Source: Sphyrna mokarran (lineage: Eukaryota). From it: a stretch of 64,000 bases of DNA. The stretch lies in assembly GCA_024679065.1 (NCBI GenBank), contig JAGIQG010000009.1, positions 91,698,001-91,762,000 of the forward strand, in the 5' to 3' direction. Both the position numbers and the translations under genes were made by a program. This document shows positions 13,338 through 61,800 of this stretch, piece by piece. Below the pieces are notes generated by a model. The model had not been told where the DNA came from. It did no database searches and saw nothing but the letters and a program-made list of their open reading frames with translations. The first letter of the stretch is position 1. The number at the start of each line of letters is the position of its first letter.

Positions 13338-13618
13338 ATTGATGTGAAAATTAGAATAGTCCATTTGAAGCATTTTCCAATTGCTCCAAGCTTCTCTGCT
13401 CTGGGTGTTTGTACATCCTGCTGTCAGGAGAGCTGAACACCAATCTCATCAGAGTCTTCCACACTGTGCTGACTTCAGTGGTGTCAAATATCAGGCTGGC
13501 TGGATAACAGTGTCTAAGCAAACATCACCCACTTCAAACTCTCACCAAAAGATTCAAATTCAACCCAGAGAGAGAGAGAGAGAGAGAGTGAGAATGGGAG
13601 AGTGAATTCTGTACTTAC

Positions 13619-13670
13619 CGGGAGAGACCCAGGAAAAACACAGGGAGATGGAGAAAAGGATCAGCAACAT
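13619..13670 (-). CDS. Gene A leader (signal peptide) exon
   Basis: ATG...CCCG|gtaagt, 52 nt; MLLILFSISLCFSWVSP. Confidence 0.9.
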
Positions 13671-13809
13671 TCTGGGAATCCACTGTCTCAATTCCAATGG
13701 GAATTAAACACTCTGAGGAGGAAACTAACGCTGTTTATCGTGACACAATAAACAAAAAGTCCACGAAGATTCAGAAGGACATAAACAGTTCAGACCAGTC
13801 CTCTTATTT

Positions 13810-20319: not shown

Positions 20320-20570
20320 GCGCAGGTTTTACTTTGTGAAAAGCGCTGGATAAAGATTAGATTTTCTTCAGCCTGAATCTGTCTGAGTTTGATCTTCCTG
20401 GGAACTAGTAAGAGACTGACTGGTTAGTCTCAGAAAATTTTTCAATTAAAGAGATAAACAGTCAGTCATCCTCTGATTCTGCAAGAAGGAAATGAGGAAA
20501 GTTTGATTTAGATGGGAAAATGGAGTTTGCATAAAGTTTTTGTTTTCCTCCCAGTTTATAAAAGTTGTTT
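20320..20570 (+). promoter_or_regulatory. Degenerate promoter of pseudogene C (paralog of gene D promoter)
   Basis: Aligns to 47325-47580; ISRE and X2 mutated; Y/CCAAT segment inverted. Confidence 0.65.
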
Positions 20571-20629
20571 CCTCCTCAGAGTGTTTAATTCCCAGTCACT
20601 GATTGGAATCGAGACAGTGTATTCCCAGA

Positions 20630-20679
20630 ATTTTGCTGATCCTTTTCTCCATTTCCGTGTTTTTACTGGGTCTTTCCTG
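20630..20679 (+). pseudogene. Pseudogene C leader exon
   Basis: Homolog of A/D leader with ATG>ATT, 50 nt versus 52; donor gtaagt retained. Confidence 0.85.
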
Positions 20680-22959: not shown

Positions 22960-23212
22960 ACACTAACTCACACACAGTGATATACACTGCCATCTCTGGC
23001 ATTGAAGATTTTCCTCAGGTACAACTTTTGCGATGATCAATGGTGTCCACATAGGATATAGTAATAACCATCACTGCATTCCCAGGCAGAAGTTCATGAC
23101 TGAAACTTTTGACAATGAATTCTGGGACTATCTCACAGAACTGGTGAACTCATACTCAGATCTGCCACAGGAGAATCTGAACATGGTCATGAAATCATAA
23201 ACCAAATATCTG
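22960..23212 (+). pseudogene. Pseudogene C MHC class I alpha1 exon (A/B family)
   Basis: TNSHTVIYTAISGIEDFPQ/TTFAMINGVHIGY..SNNHHCIPRQKFMTETFDNEFWDYLTELVNSYSDLPQENLNMVMKS/NQISG|gtaag; acceptor AG>AA and two frameshifts; no downstream alpha2 found. Confidence 0.88.
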
Positions 23213-25607: not shown

Positions 25608-25641
25608 CTTAGTTCTACATTCCCCTCTCTCTGATTCTTAC

Positions 25642-25761
25642 CTCTCTGCTGTCTTTTCCAGATGATTATTCCAATTATCCCAAATATAACAGCCAGTGCT
25701 GGGATCACTGCTCCAATTATTATCCCAAGATGGGAGTGTCCCCCACTGTTTTCCCGGATTT
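25642..25761 (-). CDS. Gene B connecting peptide/transmembrane exon
   Basis: 120 nt, phase 1; EIRENSGGHSHLGIIIGAVIPALAVIFGIIGIIIWKRQQR (3-aa GII insertion versus A). Confidence 0.92.
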
Positions 25762-27309
25762 CTGAAACACATTTGAATAATATAAGGATTGTCTCTGTTC
25801 TCGGATCCATTCCCAGTTCTGTGTTCATTGGGGACAATTTGAACTGAAACCACCCCAGTCCAAATGGATTGGTTGAAGCTTTGCTTTTACACTGGCCCCA
25901 TGGTGGATAAGGGACTGTCTATGGACCTGCTCTGGATGGACTTCCAGAAGGTCATTGATAAAGTTCCACACAAGAGATTCTTGACAATAATCAGTGTTTG
26001 GAATTAGACAGAATCTTTGTCATGGGGTGAGAATTGGTTGGGAGGGAGGAGACAGGGAATGGAGAGAATGGGAATATGCTCCCACTGGCAAGATGTGATC
26101 AGTTGTACACCCCAGGGATCTGTGCTGGGGCTTCAGCTTTTCACTATTTATGTGAAAAACCTGCTTTGCCATTCATTTTGATCCTGGCTAATCATCAAAT
26201 TAAATATCCTGAACCCATATCCCTTTAGCCCCAAGAGTGATATCGAATTTAATCTTGAAATCACACAATGTCTTGGCTTCAACTACTTTCTGTGATAGTG
26301 AATTCCACACATTCACTATCCTCTTCATTTGTATTTATACTCTCATGAGATGAATAATTGTGGCTTTATCCTGAAAGCTAACAACAGTGATTCTCCCAAA
26401 TAAATTCTAACTGCTGAATTTGTCTGTGCAATGCAGAATGCCCTCACAAGATTCATGCTGAAAATCAGTGAGTGGGGGCTATTCCCTTTGGAGAGGCCAG
26501 TAGCACAGTGCTAAATGGTCCACTGCACTTGTGCATTGCTGGCTTGCCCTGTGACTCCTCATCGTTGCCCCTCTGACACCCCCATGATGATTGCTGGTTC
26601 CCAGGCCAGACCAATATCCGCCAGTCCCGATCTCCCCAACTCTACTACTCTCCACTTTCTGATAACCGGCCCCAATCACCCCATTATCTCCTCTCCTTTT
26701 GTCAACGATCCCAATGCAGAGAAGCAATGGGATGCCCCCACCTGTAGTGATCTCCCCCTCACAGGCTCCACCCCAGTAGGCCCTGTTCACAATAGGCTCC
26801 ACCAACTTGGCACTGCCTGATGCCCAGGAAGCAGTGCCAAGGTGCCCTTGGACATTGATACTTTACCCTTTGGCCAAACCCAGAAGACCAGGCTGGTAGT
26901 GCCAAGGGGAGATCTTGCTCTCCCTTACCTCCATCTTCTGGGTGGTTTCCATGGCATCTGTTCACCCCAGCCGGATCAGGCCTCCAGCTTTCCATTACTG
27001 GGGAGATATGAACGGGTCCAGAGACTTCAGTCCTGCTTCCGTTAATGGGATTCAAATGAGAATTTTAATGTTTAAAATTAACTCCCCACCAATTTCTGGT
27101 CAGAACTGACGACTCCAGAAAACTTGGCTATGGTTCTCAGAAGGGAGCTTGCTAAACAGCCTCTGCTGATGTCTCCTAGAATCCTACAGTGCAGAAGTAG
27201 GTTATTTGGCCCATCGAGTCTGCATTGACAACAAACCCTATCCCCAGAACTCCATGCGTTTATTCTAGCTAGTCCCCCTGACACTAAGGGGCAACTTAGC
27301 ATAACCAAT

Positions 27310-28981
27310 TTATTCACGCAGGGTGATGTAAATGTAGTTATGGAGAACACTGAGGTACAGGGTAGCAAACTGGAAGGTATCGAAGTAGATAGGGAGGATG
27401 TGCTAGATATTCTCGAGGGTTTGAAGTTGGATAAGTCCCCTGGGCCGGACGGGATTTACCCTAGGATTCTCTGGGAGGCAAGACAGGAGATTGCAGAGCC
27501 TCTGGCTCTGATCTTCAGGTCGTCGTTGGTTACGGGTGTGGTTCCGGAGGACTGGAGGATAGCGAATGTGGTCCCATTGTTCAAGAAGGGGAAGAGAGAC
27601 CTTCCAGGGAATTATAGGCCAGTGAGTCTTACTTCTGTTGTGGGCAAAGTATTGGAGAGAATTATTAGGGATAGGATTTATAGTTATTTAGAGAGAAATG
27701 AATTGATTGGGGATAGTCAGCATGGTTTTGTGAAGGGTAGGTCGTGCCTTACTAACCTCATTGAGTTTTTTGAAAAAGTGACCAAAGAGGTGGATGGGGG
27801 TAAGGCGGTTGATGTGGTATATATGGACTTTAGTAAGGCGTTTGATAAGGTGGCCCATGGAAGACTTCTGCAGAAAATGCAGATGTATGGGATAGAGGGT
27901 GATTTAGCTAATTGGGTTAGGAATTGGCTAGCAGATAGAAGACAGAGGGTGGTGGTTGATGGGAGATATTCATCGTGGAGTTCGGTGACAAGTGGTGTAC
28001 CTCAGGGGTCTGTTTTGGGGCCCCTGCTGTTTGTAATTTTTATAAATGATCTGGATGAGGGTATTGAAGGATGGATTAGTAAATTTGCAGATGACACTAA
28101 AGTCGGTGGAGTGGTAGATAGTGAAGAGGGGTGTTATAGTTTGCAGAGGGACTTGGACAAGTTGCAGAGCTGGGCCGAGAGGTGGCAAATGGAGTTTAAT
28201 GTGGAAAAGTGTGAGGTAATGCACTATGGCAGAAATAATAAATGTGTAGAGTATAGGGCAAATGGTAGGATTCTTAGTAGTCTAGATGAACAGAGGGATC
28301 TTGGTGTGTATGTGCATAGATCCCTGAAAGTAGGCAGTCAGGTCGAGAAGGTTGTTAGGAAGGCATATGGAGTCTTGGCTTTTATTGGTAGAGGGATTGA
28401 ATTTCGGAGCCGCAACGTCATGTTGCAACTGTACAAAACTCTAGTGCGGCCGCACTTGGAGTATTGTGTGCAGTTCTGGTCCCCACATTATAAGAAAGAT
28501 GTGGAGGCATTGGAGAGGGTACAGAGGAGGTTTACCAGGATGTTGCCTGGTATGGAGGGCAGGTCTTATGAGAGAGGCTGAGGGATTTGAGGTTGTTTTC
28601 GTTAGAAAGGAGGCGGCTAAGAGGGGACCTAATCGAAACATATAAGATGATTAGAGGTTTAGATAGGGTGGACAGTGATAGCCTTTTTCCTAGGATGGAG
28701 AAAGCTAGCACGAGGGGACACAGCTTTAAATTAAGGGGTGATAGTTATAGGACGGATATCAGAGGTAGGTTCTTTACCCAAAGGGTGGTTCGGGAGTGGA
28801 ATGCCCTGCCTGCAGCAGTTGTAGATGCGCCAAGTTTGGTGGCGTTTAAGAGGTTAGTTGATAAGTATATGGAAGAGAAGGGAATGGTTTAGTTTGGAGG
28901 GGCATTGCTTTTTATATTGGTCGGCGCAACATCGAAGGCCGAAGGGCCTGTTCTGTGCTGTAATGCTCTATGTTCTATGTT
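27310..28981 (+). mobile_element. Young 5'-truncated CR1 LINE (RT ORF 27340-28581, one frameshift, then 28587-28892)
   Basis: GVPQGSVLGP, FADDTK, RPHLEYCVQFWSP; ctatgtt tail; inserted into an antisense SINE with caat on both flanks. Confidence 0.97.
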
Positions 28982-29159
28982 CAATCCACCTAACCTCTTC
29001 ATTTCACTAATAAAGTTATAAAGTATTCTCTCTGAAAAGCTAGAAATAGGGCCATTTGTTTGTAAACATCCAATAGTTCCAGTGGAGATAGTTTGATGGC
29101 CTCACCAATTCCAGTAAAATATCCCTATTCCTGTACTCAAATCCTCTCACTATGAATGA

Positions 29160-29795: not shown

Positions 29796-30033
29796 CTCTC
29801 CCCAAAACTCTATACGTGCTGGGGGACAACTGATATTTTTCCAGATTGAAATGGTGAGATTTTTATTGGGATATGGAGCAATAGTGGGGAAATAGAGCAG
29901 AGGAACAGACCAGTCAGGATGTGAATGAATAGTGGAACACAATCAAGAGGCTGAATGGCTGGCTGCTGCTGCTAAACTTCACATGCACATATACACACCG
30001 CAGTAACCACAAAAGAATTTGACAGTTCCTTAC

Positions 30034-30312
30034 CCCACTGATAGAGCTTGGGCTCTGCTAGGCTGCTGTGTTCAATTTGACAGGAGTATTGATCCTCATC
30101 CCCAGCATTTATTTCAATCTCTTTCTGGATCTGATGGGTTCCATCGTGGTTCGGTCGAATCCCCGAGGATAGTGTCTCAGACATTACCTCTCCATTCCTT
30201 AGCCAGTTCACCTCGATGTCTACAGGATAAAAGCCAGTAACCAGGCAGGAGAGAGTGAGGGGCTTGTACTGACTATTGGGCTCACTTCTGGAGATGAAGA
30301 CTTCAGGCTGAA
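30034..30312 (-). CDS. Gene B alpha3 (Ig C1) exon
   Basis: 279 nt; 89/93 aa identical to gene A alpha3 by manual count. Confidence 0.97.
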
Positions 30313-30429
30313 CTGTAATGGGAAAGGGTGAAAACACAAACAATAAACCCACACTGAATGGAATGGGAGAACAGTTTGATAAATCAGTGAAGTTAGAGCA
30401 GAACATGGGCTCAAAACTGAAATCAATAC

Positions 30430-30705
30430 CTTTCCGTTCAAAATATTCTTTTCCAGCTTTGAAATATGTTTTTAAATTCTGGACACCTACTTCCTCTATA
30501 CTCCATTTCCAAAACTTGTTCCAGGATTGATCTGAATTCCATTTCTCTTTAGTCTTCACTGCGAAGTGATTGGATGCAACCCATCTCATTCTGTCTGGCT
30601 CTAAACTAATATAGTCCTTTCCATCAAATCCAAAACTCATTGATCTCTTAATGGAGCCGTCTTCAGTGACCTCCACAATCTGCATTGTTTGGAAAATGTG
30701 AATTC
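30430..30705 (-). CDS. Gene B alpha2 exon
   Basis: ctgacag|GAATTCAC...AAAG|gtattg, 276 nt; contains no cysteine. Confidence 0.96.
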
Positions 30706-33819: not shown

Positions 33820-34080
33820 CGGATGTCTGGTTTGTAATCTTCATTATCGAATTCAGATTCTCTCTCGCCATGTCTGATTGATGGTTGCAGAGATCTGTGA
33901 GATGGTCCCAGAATTCCTCATCAATAAAGTCTGCTATGACTTGCAGTCTGGGGATAGTCCGTCGATTATTACTGTCATGATAATTAACTGGCACTCCATT
34001 AACTATCGTGACTTTTGTAACCTCAGGAAAATCTGAAATTCCAGAAACTGCCGTGTATATTGCAATCATTGAGTTAGTGC
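33820..34080 (-). CDS. Gene B alpha1 exon
   Basis: ttttacag|GCACTAAC...TCCG|gtaagg, 261 nt; STNSMIAIYTAVSG...FWDHLTDLC...NQTS. Confidence 0.95.
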
Positions 34081-35964
34081 CTGTAAAACAATTAAAGAGA
34101 GGCTCAAAAACATTTACACACTGCTACCAACAGGACGAGAGAGAACAGTGAAATTCCCTTTTCCTTTCCCAAACAGGAAGGTTTTCCTAAGACATGTAGA
34201 TGTATTTAAACTCCTTAGAGTGTGAACAGTTTGAAAAGCAGCAGCAAGCTCCCTGTGAATTTAAATATAGAAAGATGGTTGCACGATTAACCTTTCTCCT
34301 TGAAATCTAATGCCACAATATTCATCAACACACTACAGTTGAAGAGAATAGTGCACTTTTACTTTCAAGGACTTCCTGCAGATCATGAAGTTTGTCATCT
34401 CAGTACCAGGAGGCCATTATGCTGGATTTTGGTACTTAAGTGGTACAGCCTTTAAGACCTAATAACGTCATAGCCTCCAGAGCTAAAGACATTGATGACA
34501 TTTTCCTTTCTACCCTAGTCAGAATTTAAAGGTTAAAAAAAAAGACAAATACAGCTGCCTTACTATGTGACTTCTCCCATTCTGTCTTTGAAATTATGGT
34601 GGCATTAGACAGGTTAAACATCCTGATTTACTTTGAAACACATTCATCCTGAGGAAGTTAAGATGGTTACCTTCTTTGTTTGAAAAAAGAGCCCATCAAA
34701 TTGGGAATGTCCTATGATGGGCTCAGGTTTAGTTAACAGATTTTCACCTGGGATGTGACCTTTGTTCTATCAGACAGTCAGTTTCTAAATACAAGGACAG
34801 GTCACCTAACTTTGAGTGATTGATCACCTTTGGAACACTGTGCCCACGTTTTGAAGGGAAAAATCAACTCCTATGTATCCACATTTGAATGAAGTTTGTA
34901 TATTTAAAGTTAGGAATATAATGGGTGCAATTCTCTCCACAAAATTCAAAGTGTCGAATTTGTGTAAAAACTAGAGTAAATTGTGCTCATTTTTCCAGCA
35001 CGAGTTTCAAAAGGACTCTCCCACATGTTGTGCACTGCAGAGCGTAGGCGTGTAATTCGCAGAAAAAGCTGGGGCAGGGCCTACTCCCACTGGAGAAGCC
35101 GGCAGCATAGTGCTGAGTGGGCCACTACACATGCACCGATCTATCAGCACTGCCAGCCTTGTGATTGCTAGCCTGCCCCGTGACCCCCATCGCTGCCTCA
35201 CTGATCCCCCCATGACCCGTTCGCTGGCCCCCAAGACAAATCCGAGCCAGCTTCAATCTGATCTTCCCCTAGTGCCAAGCTGGCAATGCCCGGGGGCACC
35301 ACCCTTCCCTCTAATCTCGTGTTGCTAACTGCCCACAAGTGGGCAGCTGTTGTAAACCCTGATGGAATGAAACATTCCTAGCAAGCAGGGAGGAGGGGGA
35401 TGGTGAAAGAGATTAATAGGCCCACTAATTAGATGCAAATGCTAATTTAAATAAATTATACAGCTCCGTGCCGATTTCTGGCACGGAGCTGATGGCAGCA
35501 GAATGACCTCCGCTTGAATCTTCCAGCCCGCTGTGCTGAGAGAATGGCCCACAACATGTTTGTGCTGGGCTAACACACTCCCATTGTATAGAAAAATAAC
35601 TGGAATCTTGTTCACAATTCTTCCCCTTCTGGGAGAGAAACATGAAGACCTCATTCCTCAACTCTACACTCATTCAGGATTCCACACATTGATCTTACAA
35701 CAACTACAACAACTACACCTGACATCGTCTGCAACTGCCAATTTTTCAGTGCCAGGTTTCAGTTTCTCATCTTCCTTTTTGGTTGAGACATACTTAGGCA
35801 ATTTGGGCCTCGAGGTTTAGATCCAGGAAAGTTTTTGTTCAGGAATCTTGCATCTTCCCTTCTCTTTCTATTTTTAGCCTTGTTATGTGTGGTCGAATTT
35901 GGACTTGTGACAATTTATAAGAGTTTGGACAAATCGATACCAATATCCATATTCCACCAGACAT

Positions 35965-36797
35965 GTAGAACATAGAACATTACAGCGCAGAACAGGCCCT
36001 TCGGCCTTCGATGTTGCGCCGACCAATTATGAATAAAGCAATGACCCTCCAAACTAAACCATTCCCTTCTCTTCCATATACTTATCAACTAACCTCTTAA
36101 ACGCCGCCAAACTTGGTGCATCTACAACTGCCGCAGGCAGGGCATTCCACTCCCTAACCACCCTCTGGGTAAAGAACCTACCTCTGATATCCGTCCTATA
36201 ACTATCACCCCTTAATTTAAAGCTGTGTCCCCTCGTGCTAGCTTTCTCCATCCTAGGAAAAAGGCTATCACTGTCCACCCTATCTAAACCTCTAATCATC
36301 TTATATGTTTGGATAAGGTCTCCTCTCAGCTGCCTCCTTTCTAATGAAAACAACCTCAAATCCCTCAGCCTCTCCTCATAAGACCTGCCCTCCATACCAG
36401 GCAACATCCTGGTAAACCTCCTCTGTACCCTCTCCAATGCCTCCACATCTTTCTTATAATGTGGGGACCAGAACTGCACACAATACTCCAAGTGCGGCCG
36501 CACTAGAGTTTTGTACAGTTGCAACATGACGTTGCGGCTCCGAAATTCAATCCCCCTACCAATAAAAGCTAAGACTCCATATGCCTTCTTAACAACCTTA
36601 TCGACTTGATTGCCTACTTTCAGGGATCTATGCACATATACACCGAGATCCCTCTGTTCATCAACACTATTAAGAATCTTACCATTAGCCCTATACTCTA
36701 CACATTTGTTATTCCTGCCAAAGTGCATTACCTCACACTTTTCCACATTAAACTCCATTTGCCACCTCTCGGCCCAGCTCTGCAACTTGTCCAAGTC
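35965..36797 (-). mobile_element. Young CR1 LINE 3' fragment
   Basis: ORF 36054-36794 near-identical to the RT C-terminus of the 27-28 kb copy. Confidence 0.95.
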
Positions 36798-40597: not shown

Positions 40598-41543
40598 ATA
40601 TCGGCCGGAATTCTCTGGCCATTCACGTTGGTGGAATTCTCCAGTCCCACCGGCAGCACACTGCCCACCATTGCCAACCCACCCATCCCACCTCTCCCCC
40701 AACCTCCCCGCGTGGGGTGTCATCAATGGGAATTCCCATTGACAGGGTGAATCCAGAGAATCCTGCTATGAGGAAATAGCGCACCACCTTCTACCAGTAG
40801 GAAACACGTGCCTGGAAAATCACTCCCATATTATGAACAGCTGGGACCGACCCCAGGATCAGCTGTGATGCCCAATTAGATCATGATGATCCAAACATCA
40901 TCTTTTCATTGAGAACTGTCAGTGAGATATTGTGAGTGGATTGAAATGAAGAGAAACAGTAATATTTGGGAGGATGAAATTTGAGACCATAGGGGTGGGG
41001 GGGATGGGGAATGTAGTCACTGTATGAACAGTTTGACTGTCAAACAGGAGGACGGACAATCCAGAGCAGGATCTCCATTGTCCTTCACAGAGCTTTTTAA
41101 TCTCCCCTTTGTACGTACTCACTAAGATGTCGGTAGTCTGAGATAACCTGACCATGAGAGCATCACAGCTGATCCTGGGGTGGGTGAAACACGGATTATC
41201 CTTCTCCTTGCCGGAGCTTTTCAAACTCTTTAGCCTAAGAGTAACGAAGCTGTTTTGCTTCTCCCAATCGATGTGAAAATTAAAATTGTCCATTTGAAAC
41301 ATTTTCCATTTGTTCCAAGTTTCTCTGCTCTGGGTGTTTGTACATCCTGCTGTCAGGAGAGCTGAACACCAATCCCATCAGAGTCTTCCACACTGAGCTG
41401 ACTTCAATGGTGTCAAATATCAGGCTGGCTGGAGAACAGCGTCTGAGCAAACATCACCCATTTCAAACTCTCACCAAAAGATTCAAATTCACCCCAGAGA
41501 GAGAGAGAGAGAGTGAGAATGGAAGAGTGAATTCTGTACTTAC

Positions 41544-41595
41544 TGGGAGACACCCTGGAAAAATACAGAGAGATGGAGAAAAGGATTAACAACAT
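41544..41595 (-). CDS. Gene B leader exon
   Basis: MLLILFSISLYFSRVSP, 52 nt, A|gtaagt; flanks paralogous to gene A 12800-13960. Confidence 0.88.
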
Positions 41596-41739
41596 CCTGG
41601 GAATCCACTGTCCTAATTCCAAACAGTGACTGGGAATTAAACACTCCGAGGAGGAATCTAACACTGTTCATTGTGATGGGAAAACACACGATAAACAAGC
41701 AGTCCAAGGAGATTCAGAAGGACATAAACAGTTCAGACC

Positions 41740-46015: not shown

Positions 46016-47328
46016 ATCTGTTGTCGTAGTGTCTGCATCCTCTCCCCAATGCACCTTGCCTCAGGACATCCTTTCCTCCAAGAAGATTGCGCATATCAAC
46101 ACATCATGGCTTAAATGGGTGACACCTTATTCTGAGATTTTGCTCACTGACCTTAGATTCTCCAACAAGGGGAAACAATCTCTCAGCATCTACCCTGTCA
46201 AACCCCCTGAGAATCCTCTATGCCTCAATATGGTCACATCTCATTCTTCTAAACTCCAATGAGTACAGGCCTAACCTACTCAACCTCTCCTCATAAGAAA
46301 ATCCCTGAGCACCTGGGCTGAACCTAGTGAACCTTCTCTGCACTGCTTCCAATGCCAGTATATCTTTTCTTAGGTAAGGGGACTAAAACTGTTCACAGTT
46401 TTCAGTTTCAGGCCAGAAGTGGTCTAATTCGTGACTTGTGCAGTTTTAGCAAGCTTTCCCTATTTTTATATTCCACTCCCTTTGAAATAAAGCCAGCATT
46501 CCCTCTGCCCTGGATTTTCATAGAATCCCTACAGTGCAGTTGGAGGCTATTTGGCCCATTGAATATGCACTAACAGAGCACCTTACTCAGGCCCAGGCTC
46601 AGCCGCTGCACTATGCCCATTCACTTAGCCTGCTAATACCCCTAACCTACACATCTTGAGACACTAAGGAGCAAATTAGCATGGCCAATCCACCTAACCT
46701 GCATATCTTCAATCTGTTTTTTATTCATTCATGGGAGTTGGATATCACTGGCTGGAAGCATTTATTGCCCATCCCTTGTTGTCAGGGTGCAGCTAAAGGT
46801 CAACCACATTGCTTTGGCTCTGGAGTGGGGAGGAATTTTAGCCTCATGCAGAAATTCTCAGATATACATTGAAGTGTAAATACAGAGAAATGGTTTAACA
46901 AATTATAGGTTACTTTGGGAGTTAGACAAGCCCCAAAGAATCTATATCTTGAACCGAACAGCAACCTTGGTGAGTTGTTGCAGTGGATCTTGAGAATTTT
47001 AAATTTGAAATCTCTTTCTGTCCTCACACCTCCTTCCTATTTCTGTAATCTCCTCCAGTTTCACAAACTCTATGAGATCTCTGTGTTCCTCTCTTCTGAC
47101 ATCTCCAGTATCATCAGACTCTTCCACTCTGTGCTAAATTCAATTAGATTAGAATCTCCCCCACACTGGGGACTGTGCCTTCAGTAACCTCGGTCCTTCA
47201 CTCTGTAATCCCCTCCCTACACCTCTCTGCAGCCTCTCTTTAAAACCTGCGAACTTTGAGACAGTTTTTATGCACTGAGCTGAGTGTGTCTCTGGGTCAA
47301 TCTTTGTTTTATAAAGCTGTCCGTGGGG

Positions 47329-47578
47329 AGGTTTCACTTTGTGAAAGGCGCTGGATGAAGATTAGACTTTTATCAGCCTGAACCTGTCTGAGTTTGATCT
47401 TCCGGGTAACTAGTGACAGGTTAGTTATTTATCTCTTTAATTGGTTAATTTTCTGAGACTAACCAATCAGTCATTCCCTGGTTCTGCAATAAGGAAATAA
47501 GGAGAGTCCGATTTCGACGGCAAAATGGAATCTGGATAAAGTTTTCGTTTTTTCGTGTTTTCCCCTAAGTTTATAAAG
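47329..47578 (+). promoter_or_regulatory. Gene D class I promoter: ISRE, S, X1/X2, Y, CCAAT, TATA
   Basis: aggtttcacttt 47329-47340; aacctg 47381; ccgggtaactagtgaca 47402-47418; ATTGG 47440-47444; CCAAT 47463-47467; tataaa 47572-47577. Confidence 0.75.
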
Positions 47579-47643
47579 TTGTTTCCTCCTCAGAGTGTTT
47601 AATTCCTAGTCATTGATTGGAATTGGGACAGTGGATTCCCAGT

Positions 47644-47695
47644 ATGTTGCTGATCCTGTTCTCCATCTCCCTGTGTTTTTCCTGGGTCTCTCCCG
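47644..47695 (+). CDS. Gene D leader exon
   Basis: MLLILFSISLCFSWVSP, G|gtaagt; the only recognisable leader upstream of the alpha1 exon at 49362. Confidence 0.85.
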
Positions 47696-48965
47696 GTAAG
47701 TACAGAATTCACTCTCCCATTCTCACTCTCTCTCTCTCTGGGGTGAATTTGAATCTTTTGGGGAGAGTTTGAAATGGGTGATATTTGCTCAAACGCTGTT
47801 ATACAGCCAGCCTGATATTTGACACCATTGAATTTAGTGTGGAAGAGTTTGATGGGATTTAGTGTCCAGGACATGTAGACACATGAAAGGCTGATTCCTG
47901 GAATGAAGGGATTGTCTTTTGAGGAAAGGTCAGGCTTGTATCCATTAGAGTTTGGAAGAATCAGAGGTGACCTTATTGAAACAGAGAAGATTCTGAGGAG
48001 AATTGACAAGATGGATGCTAAAAAGATGTTTCCCTTTCTGGAGGAGGAGAGCTGGGAGGACACAGACTAAAACTGAGATCAGAGAAGCTGGGAACAAATA
48101 GAAAATGATTCCAATGGACAATGTTAATTTTCATATCAATTGGAGGAAGCAATAGCTGTGACAATGGTGATTTTCTATGATGTTTACCGGGTAGTTTTCA
48201 ATATGTTTTGTAAAGTGACAAGTATAAAGTTGTAGTGGATTTAGTAACAAGGAAATAAACTATAATTAATATAAATCAGGGCAGCAAAGAGAACAAATCC
48301 CAAACAGTGAACATCGCATGGTAGAGTTTGATGTCTAGCACGAGGTGGAGAAAGATTCAAAGTAAGGAATTAAGTTTAAGAAAGGCTGTGACTTCCCCGG
48401 ACTGAAAATGAAGCTGAGCGTGTTAACATACGCCTGGTTCTCAGGAACAGACCTACAGAAAAAAGTGAGAGCTGTTTAAAGGAGAATTTAGTACAGGACA
48501 AGACCAAAATATCCCTATAAAGGGCAACAACTTCACTTCTGCCGACGGCCAAAGTCCAAATGTGATCGTGACAGTGTAAAGATTCAGGACATAGTTCAAC
48601 ACAGATATAGAAAGGTGTGTGGAAACAGGTATTGAGTAAGGGAGTGGCTGGAGGGAGCTGTGAGGCTATTAAAGAACAACAGGTAGAAGAAGATTTATTA
48701 ACCTGGGATGCCCCACAGCCTCTATATAGACAATTAAGTATTGTTTGTAAGTCTAGTCACCGGAGCGATTTAGAAAAGACAGCAGGCAATTTATGTACAG
48801 CAAGATCCCAAAAGACAGTCCTTCACATTGACCAGGTAATCTGTTTTGCTTATGTTGGTTCAGTGATTAGCGCGAACTCACAGAAATGTACATTAACTCT
48901 CTGCTTGTCTTTCAAATAGAATCATATAAACCCTCCTGATAGAGCAGAAAATGCAGCACTTTCAA

Positions 48966-49202
48966 CAGTGTGCCTCGGCACTGACCCTCTGGCAGTGCAG
49001 CACTGCCTCGGCACTGACCCTCTGGCAGTGCAGCACTGCCTCGGCACTGACCCTCTGGCAGTGCAGCACTGCCTCGGCACTGACCCTCTGGCAGTGCAGC
49101 ACTGCCTCGGCACTGACCCTCTGGCAGTGCAGCACTGCCTCGGCACTGACCCTCTGGCAGTGCTGCAGCACTGCCTCGGCACTGACCCTCTGGCAGTGCA
49201 GC
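48966..49202. repeat. 33-bp tandem repeat (cagtgcagcactgcctcggcactgaccctctgg), ~7 copies
   Basis: Direct reading; related 33-mer at 59420-59540. Confidence 0.95.
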
Positions 49203-49361
49203 GGTGGGGAGGGGTGGGGGGGAGGGGGGTAGTGGGGTGGTGTTTGGAGGGCTTGAGAATGGGGTGGACTTGGGAGTGTGACGGTAGGTGGGGGAGAGGG
49301 ATGTGGTACAGTCTGTGTGTGAACATCCTTCTGAATGCGGTGAATATTTTTGCCGAGACAG

Positions 49362-49625
49362 ACAGCCACTCGTTGAGATATTACTACACCTCGATGTTGA
49401 ACAGTGGTGATCTGCCTCAGTTCATTCATGTTGGAGTGCTTGATGGCGTACCAATCACTTACTATGACAGCAACAGCAAGACAGATGTAGCACGGCAACC
49501 ATGGATGAACACATCAGTGGAGGAAAGTATTTGGAATGAAGAGACTCAGAGACTGATGGATCGAGAGAAGCTGTCGATGGCCAATGTTCGCATTGCAACT
49601 AAGAGAACAGGCAGTAATGACACAG
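49362..49625 (+). CDS. Gene D MHC class I alpha1 exon
   Basis: gacag|ACAGCCAC...ACAG|gtaagt, 264 nt; DSHSLRYYYTS..PQFIHVGVLDG..YYDS..RQPWM..WNEETQ. Confidence 0.96.
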
Positions 49626-49748
49626 GTAAGTGTACATTCGTGTTAGAGAGTGAGCCAGGTTCACAGGGAGTGTGTAATCATGAACACGTTTGTGTTAGAG
49701 AGTGAGCCAGATTCACAGAGAGTTTGTAATAGTGAACACACTTGTGTT

Positions 49749-51655
49749 CCTAGATTAGCTAGGAAGGAGGTAAAAAGTGAATTGAGGAGAGCTAAGAGGG
49801 GACACGAGAAGATGTTGGCTGATAGGATTAAGGAGAATCCTAAAGCTTTCTTTCGATATGTTAAGAATAGAAGATTGGTTAGGGCAAGATTAGGACCAGT
49901 CATAGATAGCAGTGGGAAGTTGTGCGTGGAGCCTGAAGAGATTGGCGAGGCACTGAATAAATATTTCTCTTCGGTATTCACGCAGAGTGCTGGAAATGTA
50001 GCTTTGGAGAACACTGAGGTACAGGGTTGCAAATTGGGAAGTATTGTAGTAGATAGGGAGGATGTGTTAGAAATTCTCAAAGGTTTGAAGTTGGATAAGT
50101 CCCCTGGGCCGGACGGGATTTACCCTAGGATTCTCTGGGAGGCAAGAGAGGAGATTGCAGAGCCTCTGGCTCTGATCTTCAGGTCCTCGTTGGTTACGGG
50201 TGTGGTTCCGGAGGACTGGAGGATGGCGAATGTGGTCCCATTGTTTAAGAAGGGGAAGAGAGACCTTCATGGGAATTATAGGCCAGTGAGTCTTACTTCT
50301 GTGGTGGGCAAGGTATTGGAGAGAATTATTAGGGATAGGATTTATAGTTATTAAGAGAGAAATGAATTGATTGGGGATAGTCAGCATGGTTTCGTGAAGG
50401 GTAGGTCATGCCTTACTAACCTCATTGAGTTTTTGAGAAAGTGACCAGAGAGGTGGATGGGGGTAAGGCGGTTGATGTAGTATATATGGACTTTAGTAAG
50501 GCTTTTGATAAGGTGGCCCATGGAAGACTTCTACAGAAAATGCAGATGTGTGAATAGAGGGTGATTTAGCTAATTGGATTAGAAATTGGCTGGCAGATAG
50601 AAGACAGAGGGTGGTGGTTGATGGGAGATTTTCATCGTGGAGTTCGGTGACGAGTGGTGTGCCTCAGGGGTCTGTTTGGGGGCCCCTGCTGTTTGTAATT
50701 TTTATAAATGATCTGGATGAGGGTATTGAGGGATGGATCAGTAAATTTGCAGATGACACTAAAGTTGGTGGAGTGGTAGATAGTGAAGAGGGGTGTTATA
50801 GTTTACAGAGGACTTGGACAAGTTGCAGAGCTGGGCCGAGAGGTGGCAAATGGAGTTTAATGTGGAAAAGTGTGAGGTAATGCACTTTGGCAGGAACAAT
50901 AAATGTGTAGAGTATAGGGCTAATGGTAGGGCTCTTAATAGTGTTGAGGAACAGAAGGATCTTGGTGGATGTGTCAATAGATCCCTGAAAGTAGGCAGTC
51001 AAGTGGATAAAGTTGTTAAGAAGGCATATGGAGTCTTAGCTTTTATTGGTAGGGGATTGAATTTAGGAGCCGCAGCATCATGTTGCAACTGTACAAAACT
51101 CTAGTGCGGCCGCACTTGGAGTATTGTGTGCAGTTCTGGTCGCCACATTATAAGAAAGATGTGGAGGCATTGGAGAGGGTACAGAGGAGGTGTACTAGGA
51201 TGTTGCCTGGTATGGAGGGCAGGTCCTATGAAGAGAGGTTGAAGGATTTGAGGTTGTTTTCGTTAGAAAAGAGGCGGCTAAGGGGGGGTCTTATTGAAAC
51301 ATATAAGATAATTAGAGGTTTGGATAGGGTGGACAGTGATAGCCTTTTTCCTAGGATGGAAAAAGCTAGCACGAGGGGACACAACTTTAAATTAAGGGGT
51401 ATGAGTTATAGGACGGATATCAGAGGTAGGTTCGTTACTCAAAGAGTGATTAGGGAGGGGAATGCCCTGCCTGCAGCTGTTGTAGATGCGCCAAGTTTGG
51501 TGGCGTTTAAGAGGTTAGTTGATAAGTATATGGATGAGAAGGGAATGGTTTAGTTAGGAGGGGCATTGCTTTTTATTTTGGTCGGCACAACATCGAAGGC
51601 CGAAGGGCCTGTTCTGTGCTGTATTGTTCTATGTTCTATGTTCTATGTTCTATGT
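49749..51655 (+). mobile_element. Young 5'-truncated CR1 LINE with several frameshifts
   Basis: Same subfamily as 27310-28981; (ttctatg)n tail. Confidence 0.96.
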
Positions 51656-52065
51656 TAAACAGTGAGCCAGGTTTACAGAGAGTGTGTAAAAGTGAACACA
51701 CTCGTGTTAGAGAGTGACCCAGGTTCACAGGGAGTGTAATAGTGAACACATTCATGTTAGAAAGTTACCCAGATTCACAGAGAGTGTGAAATAGTGAACA
51801 TATTCATATTAGAGAGTGACCGAGCTTTACAGGGGATGTGTAATAGTGATCACAGTCATAATACAGATTTACTCAGGTTCACAGAGGCTGCAGCAGTGAA
51901 CACAGTCACAGTTAAAGAGTGACCCAGGTTCACCAGGGGTGTGTAATAGTGAACATATTCATGTTAGAGAGTGATCCAGGTTTGTAGAGAGTATGTGGTA
52001 GTGAATATACTCATGTTGATGAGTGACCCAGATTCACAGGGAATGTATAATAGTGAACACTCATA

Positions 52066-53333
52066 GAATATAGATGGAATTTAATCCTGATAAATGTGAG
52101 GAGATGCGTTTCGGGAGAAAGAATGTAGTGGGGAGGTATATGATAAAGGGTAGACCTATTAAGAGTATAGAAACGCAGAGGGACCTGGGGGTGCAGGTGA
52201 ACAAGTCTCTGAAGGTGGCAGAGCAAGTGGAGAAGGTTGTGAAGAAAGCATATAGTATGCTAGCCTTTATAGGAAGGGGTATAGAGTACAAGAGCTGGCC
52301 TTTAATGTTGCAGTTGTATAAAACGTTGGTTAGACCTCATTTGGAATACTGCGTCCAGTTCTGGTCGCCTTACTACCGGAAGGACGTGGAGACTCTGAAG
52401 AGAGTGCAGAGGAGGTTTACCAGGATGCTACCTGGTATGGAAGGTCTGAGTTACGAGGAGAGGTTAGGCAAATTGGGACTGTTTTCCTTAGAAAGACGTA
52501 GACTTAGAGGAGATCTAATAGAGGTGTACAAGATTATGAGGGGTATAGATAGAGTAAACAGGGTTAAGCTTTTTCCTAGGATGGACTCGAATAGCACGAG
52601 GGGTCACGGGCTTAGGGTGAGGGGGGTAAGGTATAATTTGGATGCTAGAGGGAGTTTTTTCACACAGAGGGTGGTGGGGGTATGGAATGCGCTGCCAAGT
52701 AAAGTGGTGGAGGCAGGTACTCTGGAGTTATTTAAGAAATACTTAGATGGGCACATGAACAGAATGGGAATGGAGGGGTATAGAAAACTGATTTAAAATA
52801 GGGATCATGAGCCTTGGGAGTCCCTGGGAAGTGTGTAAATAGATGATGATATTGATGTACTTGTTTTTATCCTACAGGTGCTTTGGTCCACCTTGTTGTC
52901 TAACAAGGGGCATACACGCGATGGGTCGTGAGAGGGCTGCTCTTGGATTTTTTTCGAGAGTATCCTAGTGCTTCACGTCGTTAGTGTACACTTGACCTGG
53001 ACCATTTGATGGGCAACACGACAGCTCAGTGACTATCGCTGTGCTGTGCAGATACATGGATTTGGGCCTGTGTCTGTGGGAGTTTGCGCATTCTCCCCGT
53101 GCTTGCGTGGGTTTTCTCCGGGTGCTCCGGTTTCCTCCCACATCCCAAAGATGTGCTCTTAGGCTAATTGGCAAAACAAATTCTCCCTAAATTGTCTCAA
53201 CTTTGGTTTTTAATCCATAGATCTATAAACATGGACAGGGATTGCGGGTAGAGGTGGGAACATCGGGGTGGCGGCGCAGGCTTGTTGGGCCGAAGGGCCT
53301 GTTTCCCGTGCTGTTTTGTTCTTTGTTCTTTGT
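52066..53333 (+). mobile_element. CR1 LINE 3' part (ORF 52074-52796) with long 3' UTR
   Basis: RPHLEYCVQFWSP; ggccgaagggcc hairpin and (tttgttc)n tail. Confidence 0.9.
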
Positions 53334-54700
53334 TAGTATAGCACAGAAGCCCTTTCAGCCCTCAATGTTGTGCTGAGACGTCCAAACCCAAGATCAAGCT
53401 ATCTCATTCCCTGTAACTCTGGTGTGTTCCACGTGCCTATCCAATAACTGCTTGAAAGTTCCTAAAGTGTCCAACTCCACTATCTAGTGGACTAGTGGGC
53501 AGTCCATTCCACATACCAACCACTCTCTGAGTGAAGAATCTGCCTTAGACATCCTTCCTATATCTCCTACCATGAATCTTATAGTTATACCCCCTAGTAA
53601 CAGCTACATCCACCTAAGGAAATAGTCTCTGCACATCCACTCTGTCTATACCCCTCATCATCTTATAAACCTTTCATCCTCCTCTGCTGTAAACAGAAAA
53701 GCCCCAGCTCCAAACTTTTCTTCATAAGACCCTACCTCCTAACCAGGCAATGTCCTGGTAAATATCATCTGCACTCTCTCCAAAGTGCTCTCCCACAAAC
53801 AAATCTAGTACTTAGCCCAGTTCATTAACCAGTCCCAAGTTCAATGTGGCCCTATCTCTTGTCGGCTTATCCAAATATTACATCAGGAAACTCTCCCACA
53901 CACACTGTACAAAAAGTGTCCCATCCAAACTATTCAATCTATAAAGTTCCAAAAAATATTTGGAAAATTAAAGTCACCCATGATAACTAGCCTGTGACTT
54001 CCACACCTATCCATAATCTGCTTTGCCATTTCCTTCTCCGCATCTCTATTATGATTTGGGGGCCTATAGAAAACTCCTAACAACGTGATCAATCCTTTCC
54101 TATTTCTAACTTCAGCCCATATTACCTCAGTAGGCACACCGCCCTCGAAATGCCTTTCAGCAGCTGTTAAACAATCCTTCATTAACAATGCTACCCCTCC
54201 ACCTCTTTTACTGCCTTTCCTACTCTTACTGAAACACCTATATCCCGGAACTGCCAACAACCACTCCTGTCCCTGTTCTAACCATGTCTCTGTAATGGCC
54301 ACAACATCATAGTCCCAAGTACCAATCCATGCTCCAAGTTCACCTACCTTATTCCTGATGCTCCTAATACACTTCAATCCACCATCCTGTCTGCCTGTAC
54401 ACTCCTGCGACCTTGATACTTTCCTCAGTACCTTGGGACCCTCAAAACTGGTTTTTGGACTACATCTCATTTTCTCATTCCCTTGACCAATTAGTTTAAA
54501 CCCTCCCAAAGAGCTGATGCAAATTTCCCTTCCAGGATATTAGTGCCCCTCTGGTTTAGGTGCAAATGGCCCTGTTTGTACAGATCCCACCTTGCCCAGA
54601 ATGTGCTCCAATTATCCAAGTAAATGAAACCTTCTCTCCTACAGCATCCCTGTAGCGACATGTTAATCTGCACTCTCTCCCTGTTCCTCAACTCACTAGC
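53334..54700 (-). mobile_element. Internally deleted CR1 LINE (endonuclease joined to 3' end)
   Basis: YDVVAITETWL..GGGVALL..YRPPN..MGDFNFP APE domain (ORF 53934-54509). Confidence 0.88.
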
Positions 54701-56059
54701 ACCTCATGTTAGAGAGTGACTCAGATTCACAGAGACTATGTAACAGTGAACATACTCATGTCAAGAATGATCCAGGTTCATAGGGAGCGTGTATTGTAAA
54801 CACGTGTGTGTTAGAGAGTAATCTAGGTTAACAGGGAGTGTGCACTAGTGAAACACGCTTGTGTTAGAGAGTGACTCAGGTTCACAGAGCGTGTAATAAT
54901 GAACATACCCTTGTGAAAGAGTGACCCAGGTTCATAGGGAATGTGTAACAGTGAACACACTCGTGTTAGAGAATGATCCAGGTTCACATGGAGTGTGTAA
55001 TAGCAAAGATACTCATGTTAGAGAGTGAGCTAGTTTCAAAGAGAGTGTGTATAGTGAACTCATCCATATTAGAGAGTTATCCAGGTTAAGAGCGGGTTTG
55101 TAATCGTGAACATACTCGGTGTTAGAGATTTGCTCAGTTTCACAAAGTGCGTTATAGAGAACACATTCATGTTAGAGTTATCCAAGTTCACAGACAATGT
55201 ATAATAGTGAACAAACTCATGTGAGAGAGTGACCCACATTGACAAGAATGTGTCATAGTGAACACACTCCCCTTAGAGCAGTGACCCACGTTCAAGACAG
55301 TGTGTAATAGTGAGCACACCCATGTTAGAGAGTGACCCATGTACACAGGAATGTATAATAGTGAACACACTCCTCTCAGAGCAGTGACCCAGGCTCAAGA
55401 CAGTGTGTAATAGCGAATACACTCGTGTTAAAGAGTTATCCAGGTTCACTGGGGTGTGTGTGTAATAGTGAAAACATCCATGTCAGAGAGTTACCCAGGT
55501 TCACAATGTGTGTGTAACAGTGAACACATTTGTGTTAGAGATTTACCCAAGGAGTGTGTAATAGAGAACATACACAGTTAGAGATTTACCCAGGTTCACA
55601 GGACTGTGTAATAGTGAGCATACACATGTTAAGGAGTGACCCAGGTTCACAGAGTGTGCAATAGTGAACACACTCATATTGGAGTTACCCAGCTCAAGGG
55701 AATGTGTGTAATAGTGAACATACTCTTGTTAGAAAGTGAACCAGATTTCGAGGGAATGTGTAATAATGAACATACTCAGGTTAGAGAATGATCCAGGTTC
55801 ACTGAGTGTGTAATAGTGAATACACTCATGTTAGAGCTTTATTCAGTTTCACAGAGGCTAAATAGTGAACGCACTCTAGTTAGACAGTGACCCAGATTTG
55901 CAGAGTGTGTAATAGTGAATATACTCACGTTAGAGCTTTACTCAGGTTCCCAGGGAGTGTGTAATAGTGAAGACACTCATGCTAGAGTGAGTGGATAGCC
56001 TGCAGCCTCTTGTTTTTGAAAGGTTGGTGTTGATTACTGTTTTTCTGGCCTACCTTTAG

Positions 56060-56335
56060 CTCTGAACTTCCTGCAGTATACCTCAGGCTGTGAGTTGAGG
56101 GATGATGGGACTGTGAGCGGAGTTCGTCAATATGCCTTCAATGGACGTGAGTTCATCAGCTTTGACCTGGAGCACGCCATCTGGGTTGCAGCCTCACGTT
56201 TTGCCCAGTCCACACAGAATACGTGGAACCAGAACAAGGCTGACAACACATACAAGAAACAGTACACCAAGAAGATCTGTGTCGATTGGCTAAAAACCTA
56301 CCTGAAATATGGAAATGGGGCCCTTAGTTACAAAG
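56060..56335 (+). CDS. Gene D alpha2 exon
   Basis: cctttag|CTCTGAAC...AAAG|gtatgt, 276 nt; LQYTSGCEL..YAFNGREFI..W..QYTKKICVDWLKTYL with both cysteines. Confidence 0.97.
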
Positions 56336-56479: not shown

Positions 56480-57140
56480 TCATGGCACAGAGCTGGCACA
56501 CAGTAGAGTACACATGGCATAGAGCAGGCACACAGGGCACAGAATGGATACACACCAGAGTACATGGCACAGAGCAGGCACACAACAGAATACACAGGGC
56601 ACAGAATGGGCACAGCAGGGTACACAGGGCACAGAGCTGGCACACAGCAGAGTATACATGGCGCAGAGCAGGCACACAGCAGAGTACACATGGTGCAGAG
56701 CTGGCACACAGCAGGGTACATAGGGCACAGAATAGACACAGCACAGTACACAGGGCGCAGAATGGACACAGCAGAGTACACAGCACAGAGCAGGCACACA
56801 GCAGAATACACATGGTACAGAGCAGACAGACAGCAGAGTACACAGGGCACAGAATGGGCACACAGCAGGGTACACAGCACAGAATGGGCACACAGCAGAG
56901 TACACAGGGCACAAAGCAGGCATACAGCAGAATACACAGCACAGAATGAGCACATAGCAGAGTACACAGGGCATGGGGACAAAGACAACACACAGCACAG
57001 TACACAGGGCATGGAGGACACAGCAAGCAGTGAAATAGGGCAGGGCACAGACTTTACAGGGCATGGGGCACACTGCAGAGTCACACAGGGCACAATGTGG
57101 GCACAAAATACAGGGTGCATATCATAGGTTATAGAACACA
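56480..57140. repeat. CA-rich ~32-bp degenerate minisatellite in gene D intron 3
   Basis: Repeated cacagagcaggcacacagcagagtacacaggg-like units. Confidence 0.9.
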
Positions 57141-57638: not shown

Positions 57639-57914
57639 TTCTCCCAGAGGTGCACGTCTATCACACAAAGACCTTGGATGGCCAGAATCTCAATGTCTAC
57701 TGTCATGTCACTGGCTTTCATCCACGGGCCATCAATGTGAACTGGTATAGAGATGGAGAGCCCCTGGACAGGCCCCATAGCACTGGCATTCTACCCAACC
57801 ATGATGGTACCCATCAGATAAGGATACACTTCCAGACCAAAGTTGGAGATCGCCGTAGTCACGTGTGCCACGTCCAACACAGCAGCCTGTCTGAGATATT
57901 GGAGAGACCCTGGG
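57639..57914 (+). CDS. Gene D alpha3 (Ig C1) exon
   Basis: cttctcag|TTCTCCCA...TGGG|gtaagg, 276 nt; VYCHVTGFHP..W..HVCHVQHSSL. Confidence 0.96.
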
Positions 57915-58191: not shown

Positions 58192-58485
58192 GGGTGGTTC
58201 CGGCTCGGGGTCGGGGTGGTCTCAGGTTGGGTTCTGGTGGTTCCGGCTCGGGGTCGGGGTCGGGGTGGTCTCAGGTTGGGTTCTGGTGGTTCCGGCTCGG
58301 GGTCGCGGCGGTTCCGGCTTGGGGTCGGGGTGGTTCTGGCTCGGGGTCGGGGTGGTCTCGGGTTGGGTTTCAGTGGTTCCAGGTCGGGGTGGTTTCGGCT
58401 AGGGGTCGGAGTAGTTCTGGCTCGGGGTCGGGGTGGTCTCGGGTTGGGTTCCAGTGGTTCCAGGTCGGGGTGGTTCTGGTTCGGG
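58192..58485. repeat. G-rich tandem repeat (ggttccggctcggggtcggggtggtctcaggttgggttctggt)
   Basis: Direct reading. Confidence 0.9.
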
Positions 58486-58529: not shown

Positions 58530-58667
58530 TTCAGAGTGATAATACCGGTCTGATTGTTGGCGTGGTGGTGCCGGTGATCCTGCTCGTGGGCGTTGTTGGT
58601 GTTTTTGTCTTTTATCGGAAACAGGCAGAGAAAATGCGGAAGAGTTTCAGCTGCTGTGATTTTGGTG
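58530..58667 (+). CDS. Gene D transmembrane exon
   Basis: ttattcag|TTCAGAGT...GGTG|gtaagg, 138 nt; VQSDNTGLIVGVVVPVILLVGVVGVFVFYRKQAEKMRKSFSCCDFG. Confidence 0.92.
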
Positions 58668-59419: not shown

Positions 59420-59540
59420 AACACTCCCTCAGCACCGACCCTCTGACAGCGCGGCGCCCCCTCAGCACCGACCCTCTGACAGCGCGGCGCCCCCTCAGCA
59501 CCGACCCTCTGACAGCGCGGCGCCCCCTCAGCACCGACCC
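59420..59540. repeat. 33-bp tandem repeat (ccctcagcaccgaccctctgacagcgcggcgcc)
   Basis: ~3.5 copies. Confidence 0.9.
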
Positions 59541-59719
59541 TTTTGTTTCCATTATTTCCCCAGTTGTAACTGGAGACTGACAGTCATAATTCCTGAGATT
59601 TTACACCCAGCTATTAATCTGACTGTACACAGATGATAAAATATTTTGGAAACTTCTCAGTGAATAATATATTCCCAACGATTTATCAGTGACTGAAGCT
59701 TTGTGTATTTACTTTTCAG

Positions 59720-59746
59720 GTTCTGTGAGTGATGTCTCCACAGGAA
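59720..59746 (+). CDS. Gene D cytoplasmic exon
   Basis: acttttcag|GTTCTGTGAGTGATGTCTCCACAGGAA|gtaagt, 27 nt; GSVSDVSTG resembles the class I GSDVS motif. Confidence 0.8.
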
Positions 59747-60809: not shown

Positions 60810-61568
60810 TCACATGGCACTGTCATATGATGTGGTGCAGGTTACGCGACACTATAAGTCACGTGCCAGGATGCAGATCACAAAATGGCACAATGTTGGT
60901 CACAATGACATGGTAATGGTAACATGCCACAGTGCGGGTCACAGTGGCTCGGTGCAGGTCACATGATGCAGTGCAGGTCACAGTGGCTCGGTGCGGGTCA
61001 CATGATGCAGTGCGGGTCACTGGCTCGGTGCTGGTCACATGACACCATGTTGGTCACAGTGGCTTAATGCTGGCCATATGATGCAGTATGGGTCATGGGG
61101 CTCGGTGCTGATCACATGACGCAGTGCAGGTCACAGTAGCTCGAAGCTGGTCACATGTCACAATGCAGGGCACACAATATGGTGCTGGTCACATGACACG
61201 GTGCAGGTCACAGTGGCTCAGTGCTGGTCACATGATACAATGCGGTTACAGGCTCAGTGCAGATCACATGACGCAATGCAGGTCATAATAGCTTCCTGCA
61301 GGTCACATGATGCAGCGCTGGTCATGTGACACGATGCAGGTCACAATGAAGCAGTACGGGTCACTTTGGCTCAGTGCTGGTCACATGACGCAGTACAAGT
61401 CAGAGATCTCAATGCTGATCACATGACACTGGGGATCAGAGGGCTTGGTGCTAGTCACATGACACAGTGTGGTTCACAGGGCTCAGTGCTGGTCACATGA
61501 CACAGTGCACGTCAGAGGGCTCAGTTCTGGTCACATGACTCAGGGCGGGTCATAGGGCTCAGTGCTGA
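60810..61568. repeat. ~39-41-bp minisatellite containing GGTCACATGAC
   Basis: Repeated gctcagtgctggtcacatgacgcagtgcaggtcacagtg-like units. Confidence 0.9.
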
Positions 61569-61657: not shown

Positions 61658-61800
61658 GTTCTGGCAGTTCTCAGGCCTCCTCAGAGCAGACAGATGTTGA
61701 AGCTGGCACAAATTTACTATCCTCGGGCATCCAGAGCAGTACGGAGACTGTGCAGGAACCATTCCTTTCGCCCCCAGACCCCGGTACATGCAGGGAATAA
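61658..61800 (+). CDS. Gene D terminal cytoplasmic exon
   Basis: cttttcctgtttcttag|GTTCTGGC...TAA; SSGSSQASSEQTDVEAGTNLLSSGIQSSTETVQEPFLSPPDPGTCRE*. Confidence 0.72.

Follow-up and report, generated by a model that had tools for sequence, protein, structure and literature searches.

The window analysed here, a stretch of 64,000 nucleotides of Sphyrna mokarran DNA, contains four MHC class I loci that form two head-to-head pairs, with A (minus strand) facing C (plus strand) and B (minus strand) facing D (plus strand). Gene D has an intact open reading frame of 391 amino acids distributed over seven plus-strand exons, and every one of its introns is bounded by canonical AG/GT splice sites. The first exon encodes a leader of 17 amino acids (47644-47695) and is followed by exons for alpha1 (49362-49625) and alpha2 (56060-56335), both of the UDA type, for alpha3 (57639-57914), which groups with UDA and shows no homogenisation with A and B, and for the transmembrane segment (58530-58667). 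The cytoplasmic region is divided between a 27-nt exon 6 (59720-59746) and an exon 7 that includes the stop codon (61658-61800).

The predicted product of D is a shark UDA, a nonclassical MHC class I molecule. In trees of alpha1 to alpha3, D clusters with the UDA sequences of sharks and with skate-like and chimaera-like UDA (support 99), and a Mustelus orthologue is identical to it at 318 of 391 positions and has the same leader-alpha1 junction. By eye, the alpha1 and alpha2 domains of D match the nurse shark UDA queries in the supplementary files used here (Verissimo et al. 2023, PMC10751288), and the protein P0120 matches the nurse shark UDA domains of the same files. The main text of that study, in the sections consulted, describes an elasmobranch class Ib cluster in which single-copy UDA lies beside multicopy UEA (Verissimo et al. 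2023), and D and its neighbours fit such a UDA+UEA cluster. There is one UDA copy in the 64-kb window, and one per species among the matches.

Examined by eye and in the usual class I numbering, the D product has Y7, R84, T143, W147, Y159, W167 and Y171, but Y59 is replaced by I and K146 by T, two residues that are usually invariant in peptide-binding class I. The Mustelus orthologue likewise has I for Y59. UDA is expected to retain most of the residues that bind peptide termini, and its polymorphism is presumably low and its expression restricted and low.

Repeats are abundant in and around D. Minisatellites occur in nearly every D intron (48971-49202, 49640-55987, 56516-56973, 58192-58481, 59426-59541 and 60917-61567), with one 33-bp unit recurring in introns 1 and 5. 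Young LINE-like reverse-transcriptase copies, so labelled by eye and 92-98% identical to one another, lie at 27229-28985, 49975-51646, 35950-36797 and 10654-10973; one of the window's young copies has a 450-aa open frame, and one resides inside a 52-bp tandem array in D intron 2.

The other loci are of a different type. A and B, both on the minus strand, have frames that are open from the leader through alpha3. In A, the leader (13619-13670) is followed by alpha1 (12189-12449), alpha2 (8044-8319), alpha3 (5589-5867) and a transmembrane exon (~521-640); in B, a leader with two amino-acid changes (41544-41595) is followed by alpha1 (33820-34080), alpha2 (30430-30705), alpha3 (30034-30312) and a transmembrane exon (~25637-25765). 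The plus-strand locus C has a leader (20630-20679) that is broken by an ATG-to-ATT change and a 2-nt deletion, and its alpha1, of the A/B (UEA) type (22960-23212), is frameshifted and has lost its acceptor AG. These defects agree with the original prediction of a pseudogene, which has to be narrowed in one respect: no alpha2, alpha3 or transmembrane remnant was found downstream in the window, and C is a 5′ fragment only.

From the sequence comparisons we infer that A, B and C represent UEA, the multicopy family that adjoins UDA in sharks. The label rests on the shark-only named matches of the family, setting aside one weak Xenopus match, and on the published adjacency of UDA and UEA. With the A alpha3 as query, the 109 matches comprised 106 named shark proteins, two unnamed proteins and the Xenopus match, with no named ray or chimaera protein among them. 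The supplementary files used here contain no sequence labelled UEA that could serve as a reference, and by eye A and B are far closer to their entry 'Gcirratum_UCA NODE_26056' than to Squalus UCA AF515705 (PMC10751288). The divergence of D from this family is as high as had been predicted, its protein identities to A and B being 17/84 and 20/86 in alpha1, 26/91 and 26/91 in alpha2, and 35/91 and 38/91 in alpha3. This amounts to 20-29% in alpha1 and alpha2 and 20-42% over all coding exons, with coding-exon DNA identities of 47-57%.

The island around exon 1 and its flanks

All four loci have in common an island of about 290 bp that comprises the 5′ UTR, the leader exon and the start of intron 1 (roughly -63 to +225 from the ATG) and is 85-98% identical across the loci. 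In D, this homogenised core occupies 47581-47869 on the plus strand, consisting of 63 nt 5′ of the ATG, the leader exon and 174 nt of intron 1, and its counterparts are found at 13433-13725 in A (minus strand), 41362-41656 in B (minus strand) and 20567-20864 in C (plus strand). In gap-free columns, the loci agree at 88-96% of 5′ UTR positions, at 76-98% of those in the leader and at 91-95% over the initial ~170 nt of intron 1. As had been predicted, the leader exon of D differs from that of A at one of 52 nucleotides and encodes the same 17 amino acids, and alignment confirms that the 5′ UTR and the beginning of intron 1 are shared as well. Allowing up to three mismatches, a 32-nt piece of the leader has two matches in the window against 0.00 expected from 100 shuffles.

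The island has sharp limits. Differences that separate A and B from C and D occupy 2 of 256 gap-free columns in the core and 38 of 185 in the promoter, the latter count being approximate since the alignment there is gappy (p 1e-13). The homogenised stretch takes in non-coding flanks as well as the exon, and the shared part of intron 1 has five private changes in A, one in B, four in C and four in D. The dead copy C thus has no excess of such changes, a result more consistent with neutral drift after the most recent conversion than with constraint, and one that speaks against constraint acting alone. Bounded tracts, patchy identity and the inclusion of neutral DNA, all seen here, are features of concerted evolution by gene conversion. 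The leader exon of B (41544-41595) has seven private changes versus one in the flanking intron; this counts against homogenisation of that exon and suggests that it is older or received a micro-conversion from a different donor.

Outside the island, D has further sequence in common with fragment C. The predicted direct duplication is confirmed, with 18763-19422 corresponding to 46165-46826 and 19852-21592 to 46828-48613, and with ~430 bp extra in C, where the 2.4-kb block extends over 18763-21592 on the plus strand. In D, the block includes an older upstream tract that is common to C only (46165-47580, plus strand; 84.8% identity over 1319 aligned columns) and a tract of intron 1, also exclusive to C and D (47870-48613, plus strand), in which successive segments are 96.5%, 95.6% and 88.6% identical. 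The first ~205 nt of the intron tract are an insertion, LINE-like by eye, that is missing from A and B. Overall C/D identity is 84.8% upstream versus 93.7% in intron 1 (p 3e-11); it peaks at 96-98% between about +150 and +550, drops to 89% and ends abruptly at 48613. The block fits a series of overlapping tracts of at least two different ages. These ages are relative, the published rate consulted being a per-generation one (7e-10, PMC10587355). In the 3′ part of D intron 1, no homology above shuffles was detected in any of the three comparisons with A, B and C, and a search for structured RNA in the shared block yielded no Rfam match across the whole window.

An old SINE-like remnant (48788-49202, plus strand) follows after the high-identity tract has ended; it is weakly similar to 22048-22221 and ends in a 33-bp tandem array of 6.9 copies (48971-49202). 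The similarity of the two remnants is significant (nhmmer E 5e-8; local score 63 versus a maximum of 32 in 300 shuffles) but old and patchy, and it lies 170-450 nt past the tract end. These remnants may be the mark of an older tract, and it is possible that a local C/D tract ended near the SINE.

Farther upstream, the promoter region of D resembles that of fragment C only. An ISRE-like motif of putative function at -314 (47330-47340, plus strand) is found in D only, with no match in the 700 nt upstream of A, B or C. Closer to the gene is a series of X-like, TGACA, ATTGG and CCAAT elements (47405-47467, plus strand) that occurs in the same order in A and B, with 77-79% identity over ~90 nt, and that we take to be an MHC X-Y module from its likeness to the consensus. 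The corresponding module of C is disrupted by a 45-bp inversion (20414-20458) that lies between inverted repeats, one ATTGG and the other CCAAT-like; the inverted segment is 91% identical to D 47428-47472 read on the opposite strand. Of the common regulatory module that had been proposed for the two lineages, the 5′ UTR, the leader and the X/Y-like boxes are thus retained and the upstream promoter with its ISRE-like motif is not; shared regulation of D and A/B appears plausible for the core only.

The leader in other sharks and other class I lineages

The same leader is present in nine of nine named shark UDA records that include the N-terminus (11 records in all, two of them 5′-partial), namely those of Mustelus, Scyliorhinus, Carcharodon, Ginglymostoma, Chiloscyllium, Hemiscyllium, Heterodontus, Pristiophorus and Heptranchias. 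Among the named shark proteins examined, from which three unnamed proteins and the Xenopus match had been removed beforehand, 90 of 115 carry it, and the other 25 start with a different or truncated N-terminus. One UDA record, the 1195-nt contig P0009, encodes the leader and alpha1-3 contiguously and so implies a spliced UDA transcript that joins this leader, rather than an alternative one, to the ectodomain. P0009 runs from alpha3 into intron-like sequence and then a stop, possibly a soluble or unspliced form.

Leaders of other class I lineages are different, contrary to the possibility that this exon is equally conserved throughout class I. In the best ungapped match, the number of identical residues out of 17 is 4 for UAA-like (P0147), 6 for ray-UAA-like (P0122), 4 for UBA-like, 4 for UGA-like, 3 for UFA-like and 7 for chimaera-UDA-like, with one protein for each, five of them labelled by similarity; the UAA, UBA, UGA, skate-UDA and chimaera-UDA labels derive from trees and a by-eye comparison with the supplement. 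The two UAA-like values indicate that the conserved leader is not that of classical class Ia. The chimaera UDA-like and ray UAA-like values are too close to tell the direction of origin. The sole skate UDA record found, P0146, lacks the N-terminus, and no ray UDA leader was found among the protein matches.

Variants of the leader track shark order rather than gene lineage. After removal of isoform duplicates, which kept 84 of 95 leaders, the UDA leader is identical to a commonest UEA leader of its own species in seven of nine species (in the window as a one-of-two tie). A private double change, F6L and I8T, is carried by the UDA of Pristiophorus and by its two UEA leaders; W14R is found in Heptranchias UDA with three of three UEA leaders, and in two bamboo/epaulette shark UDAs as in most of their UEA; and Cetorhinus has F12I in nine of nine UEA leaders, across old sublineages. 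The exceptions to an exact match are Scyliorhinus canicula (0/5, one UEA also having S13P) and Heterodontus (0/3, with C versus Y at position 16). Exact permutation of the UDA leaders gives 12/362880 by species (nine species) and 1/720 by order, with the species assigned to six order-level groups, and 1/120 after any one order is dropped. The same permutation applied to the ectodomains is null by order (542/720 for alpha1, 346/720 for alpha2 and 91/120 for alpha3) and null by species too. Derived variants that paralogues have in common within a taxon are a further feature of concerted evolution, here at the protein level: the cross-species evidence consists of 17 residues in mostly predicted gene models, which could borrow a neighbour's leader exon. 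Some convergence exists, since W14R and F6L recur in unrelated groups.

The remaining domains have other histories. The UEA alpha1+2 tree contains old trans-species sublineages, the poorly resolved UEA alpha3 tree groups sequences largely by species or family, and UDA is separate from UEA in both. At the DNA level, identity between A and B is 96% for alpha3 but 68% for alpha1. UDA is a partner in the exchange of exon 1 and not in that of alpha3. An AU test does not reject UDA and UEA as one clade (p 0.34), and part of their similarity may reflect common descent. Within UEA, alpha3 is a second homogenised segment that groups by taxon in the tree; across alpha3 and its flanks (5579-5921 and 30024-30366), the identity of A and B is 96.5%.

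Proposed recurrent exchange and its alternatives

In accord with the original prediction, exon 1 and its flanks have a history unlike that of exons 2-4, and this is best attributed to an exchange between two class I lineages that are both old. Drawing on the shared island, its shark-wide distribution, the order-tracking variants and the tracts of different ages, we infer that the molecular mechanism is recurrent segmental (ectopic) gene conversion, which most likely maintains the homogeneity of exon 1 in UDA and UEA throughout the sharks, together with purifying selection on the signal peptide. UDA and UEA would have come to share exon 1 in or before the shark ancestor, either because UEA arose from a UDA-like copy or because one lineage captured exon 1 through intron 1. 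Thereafter, no stretch other than the ~290-bp island would be alike enough in the two lineages to pair ectopically, so that recurrent conversion between neighbouring copies would homogenise it within each species. Such tracts might sometimes extend into the flanks, the C/D block being an example. In UDA, exons 2-4 would be too divergent from A/B to participate, UEA genes would also homogenise alpha3 among themselves, and purifying selection acting on the signal peptide probably slows its change further.

Ongoing exchange would be unnecessary if one ancient swap, or common descent, had been followed by nothing more than strong purifying selection on the leader and the cis-elements beside it. 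This alternative could account for mean identities among UDA orthologues of 92% in the leader versus 71%, 71% and 64% in alpha1, alpha2 and alpha3, and it agrees with the AU test. It does not, however, predict order-specific variants common to both lineages, the uniform F12I of Cetorhinus UEA leaders, a 94% C/D intron tract with an insertion missing from A/B or the unexceptional number of intron changes in the dead copy C, and we regard it as unlikely. The original prediction had instead proposed a one-off swap of a promoter/leader cassette in this lineage, with a crossover in the intron-1 SINE and with D as a chimera. The 2.4-kb C/D block is real, each SINE-like remnant is the other's best nhmmer match in the window, and the weak similarity between tract end and SINE scores 48.8, more than any of 582 random window segments (maximum 44.2). 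Yet this intervening similarity lies below the maximum of 200 shuffles (50.8) and is thus borderline, and the crossover point is not confirmed; the block is of at least two ages, and the swap could be at most one older tract among many; and the leader is already present in all nine UDA orthologues with an N-terminus, which rule out the swap as the origin of the shared leader. A swap peculiar to D is therefore very unlikely and gives way to shark-wide recurrent homogenisation.

An artefact of assembly or annotation might be suspected in a region so rich in repeats, where most comparison proteins are predicted models, some of them fused (P0001 and P0005). The window contains no N, the C and D blocks differ by 4-15% and thus are not a collapsed haplotype, the intact D frame has its junction in common with the Mustelus orthologue, and the P0009 contig carries the spliced form. 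Misassembly at D is ruled out by the same leader-alpha1 junction in nine other shark species, and artefact in general is so improbable as to be almost negligible.

Recurrent conversion of this kind has a precedent in mammals, where alpha3 undergoes concerted evolution between HLA-E/Qa-1 and class Ia (Joly and Rouillon 2006, PMC1403747). As that work presents it in the parts used here, conversion within species is likewise limited to a segment, takes place between old class I loci and excludes the groove exons, and UEA alpha3 behaves in the same manner; in the UDA/UEA case, by contrast, the segment is exon 1 with the non-coding sequence on either side, alpha3 takes no part, and identity between the partners is no more than 20-29% in alpha1 and alpha2. 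In salmonid UBA, too, recombination within an intron brings together 5′ and 3′ portions that have separate histories (Lukacs et al. 2007). In the part of that study considered here, exon shuffling occurs through intron 2 among UBA alleles, and alleles can carry different promoters (PMC1971071); that process is allelic, moves alpha1 and diversifies, whereas the shark process is inter-locus, lies in or around intron 1 and homogenises.

The leader is a concrete candidate ligand for UDA. In mammals, HLA-E/Qa-1 presents class Ia leader peptides to CD94/NKG2, according to the part of that source used here (PMC1397804), and sharks likewise combine a conserved class I leader with a single-copy, conserved nonclassical molecule. 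UDA could by analogy present a signal-peptide fragment of UDA/UEA as a read-out of class Ib expression, in which case selection would favour conversions by which every leader stays matched to the host UDA and its receptor. The sole positive hint is the higher identity of the UDA-orthologue leader (92%) than of the ectodomains (64-71%). The shark leader belongs to two nonclassical lineages and not to classical UAA. UDA also occurs in skate and chimaera, where no UEA match turned up and the chimaera-like leader matches at 7/17; homogenisation is as strong in the non-coding flanks as in the exon; and two changes are tolerated in the leader of B. Such an independent analogue of HLA-E/Qa-1 is thus quite unlikely.

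Concerted evolution in the MHC is a known process; what is unusual in the case proposed here is its location and the depth of the divide that it spans. A small conversion island would couple two class I lineages that are otherwise too divergent to recombine, in six shark orders. In the available text of PMC10751288, 'leader' and 'signal peptide' do not occur, its query files cover alpha1-3 only, and a shared exon 1 is not described; the available parts of PMC7677710 and PMC2846915 contain nothing on the UDA/UEA leader, and the literature searched, so far as its text was available, makes no mention of it. The novelty is provisional, as the primary UDA/UEA papers (Almeida et al. 2020, 2021) may already show the leader identity. 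In practice, 5′ primers, probes and short reads in exon 1 cannot tell UDA from UEA. The Carcharodon model P0001 fuses a UEA-type gene with UDA, and the Scyliorhinus canicula model P0005 fuses UDA with a UFA-like gene, which shows both the adjacency of these genes and a hazard for their annotation.
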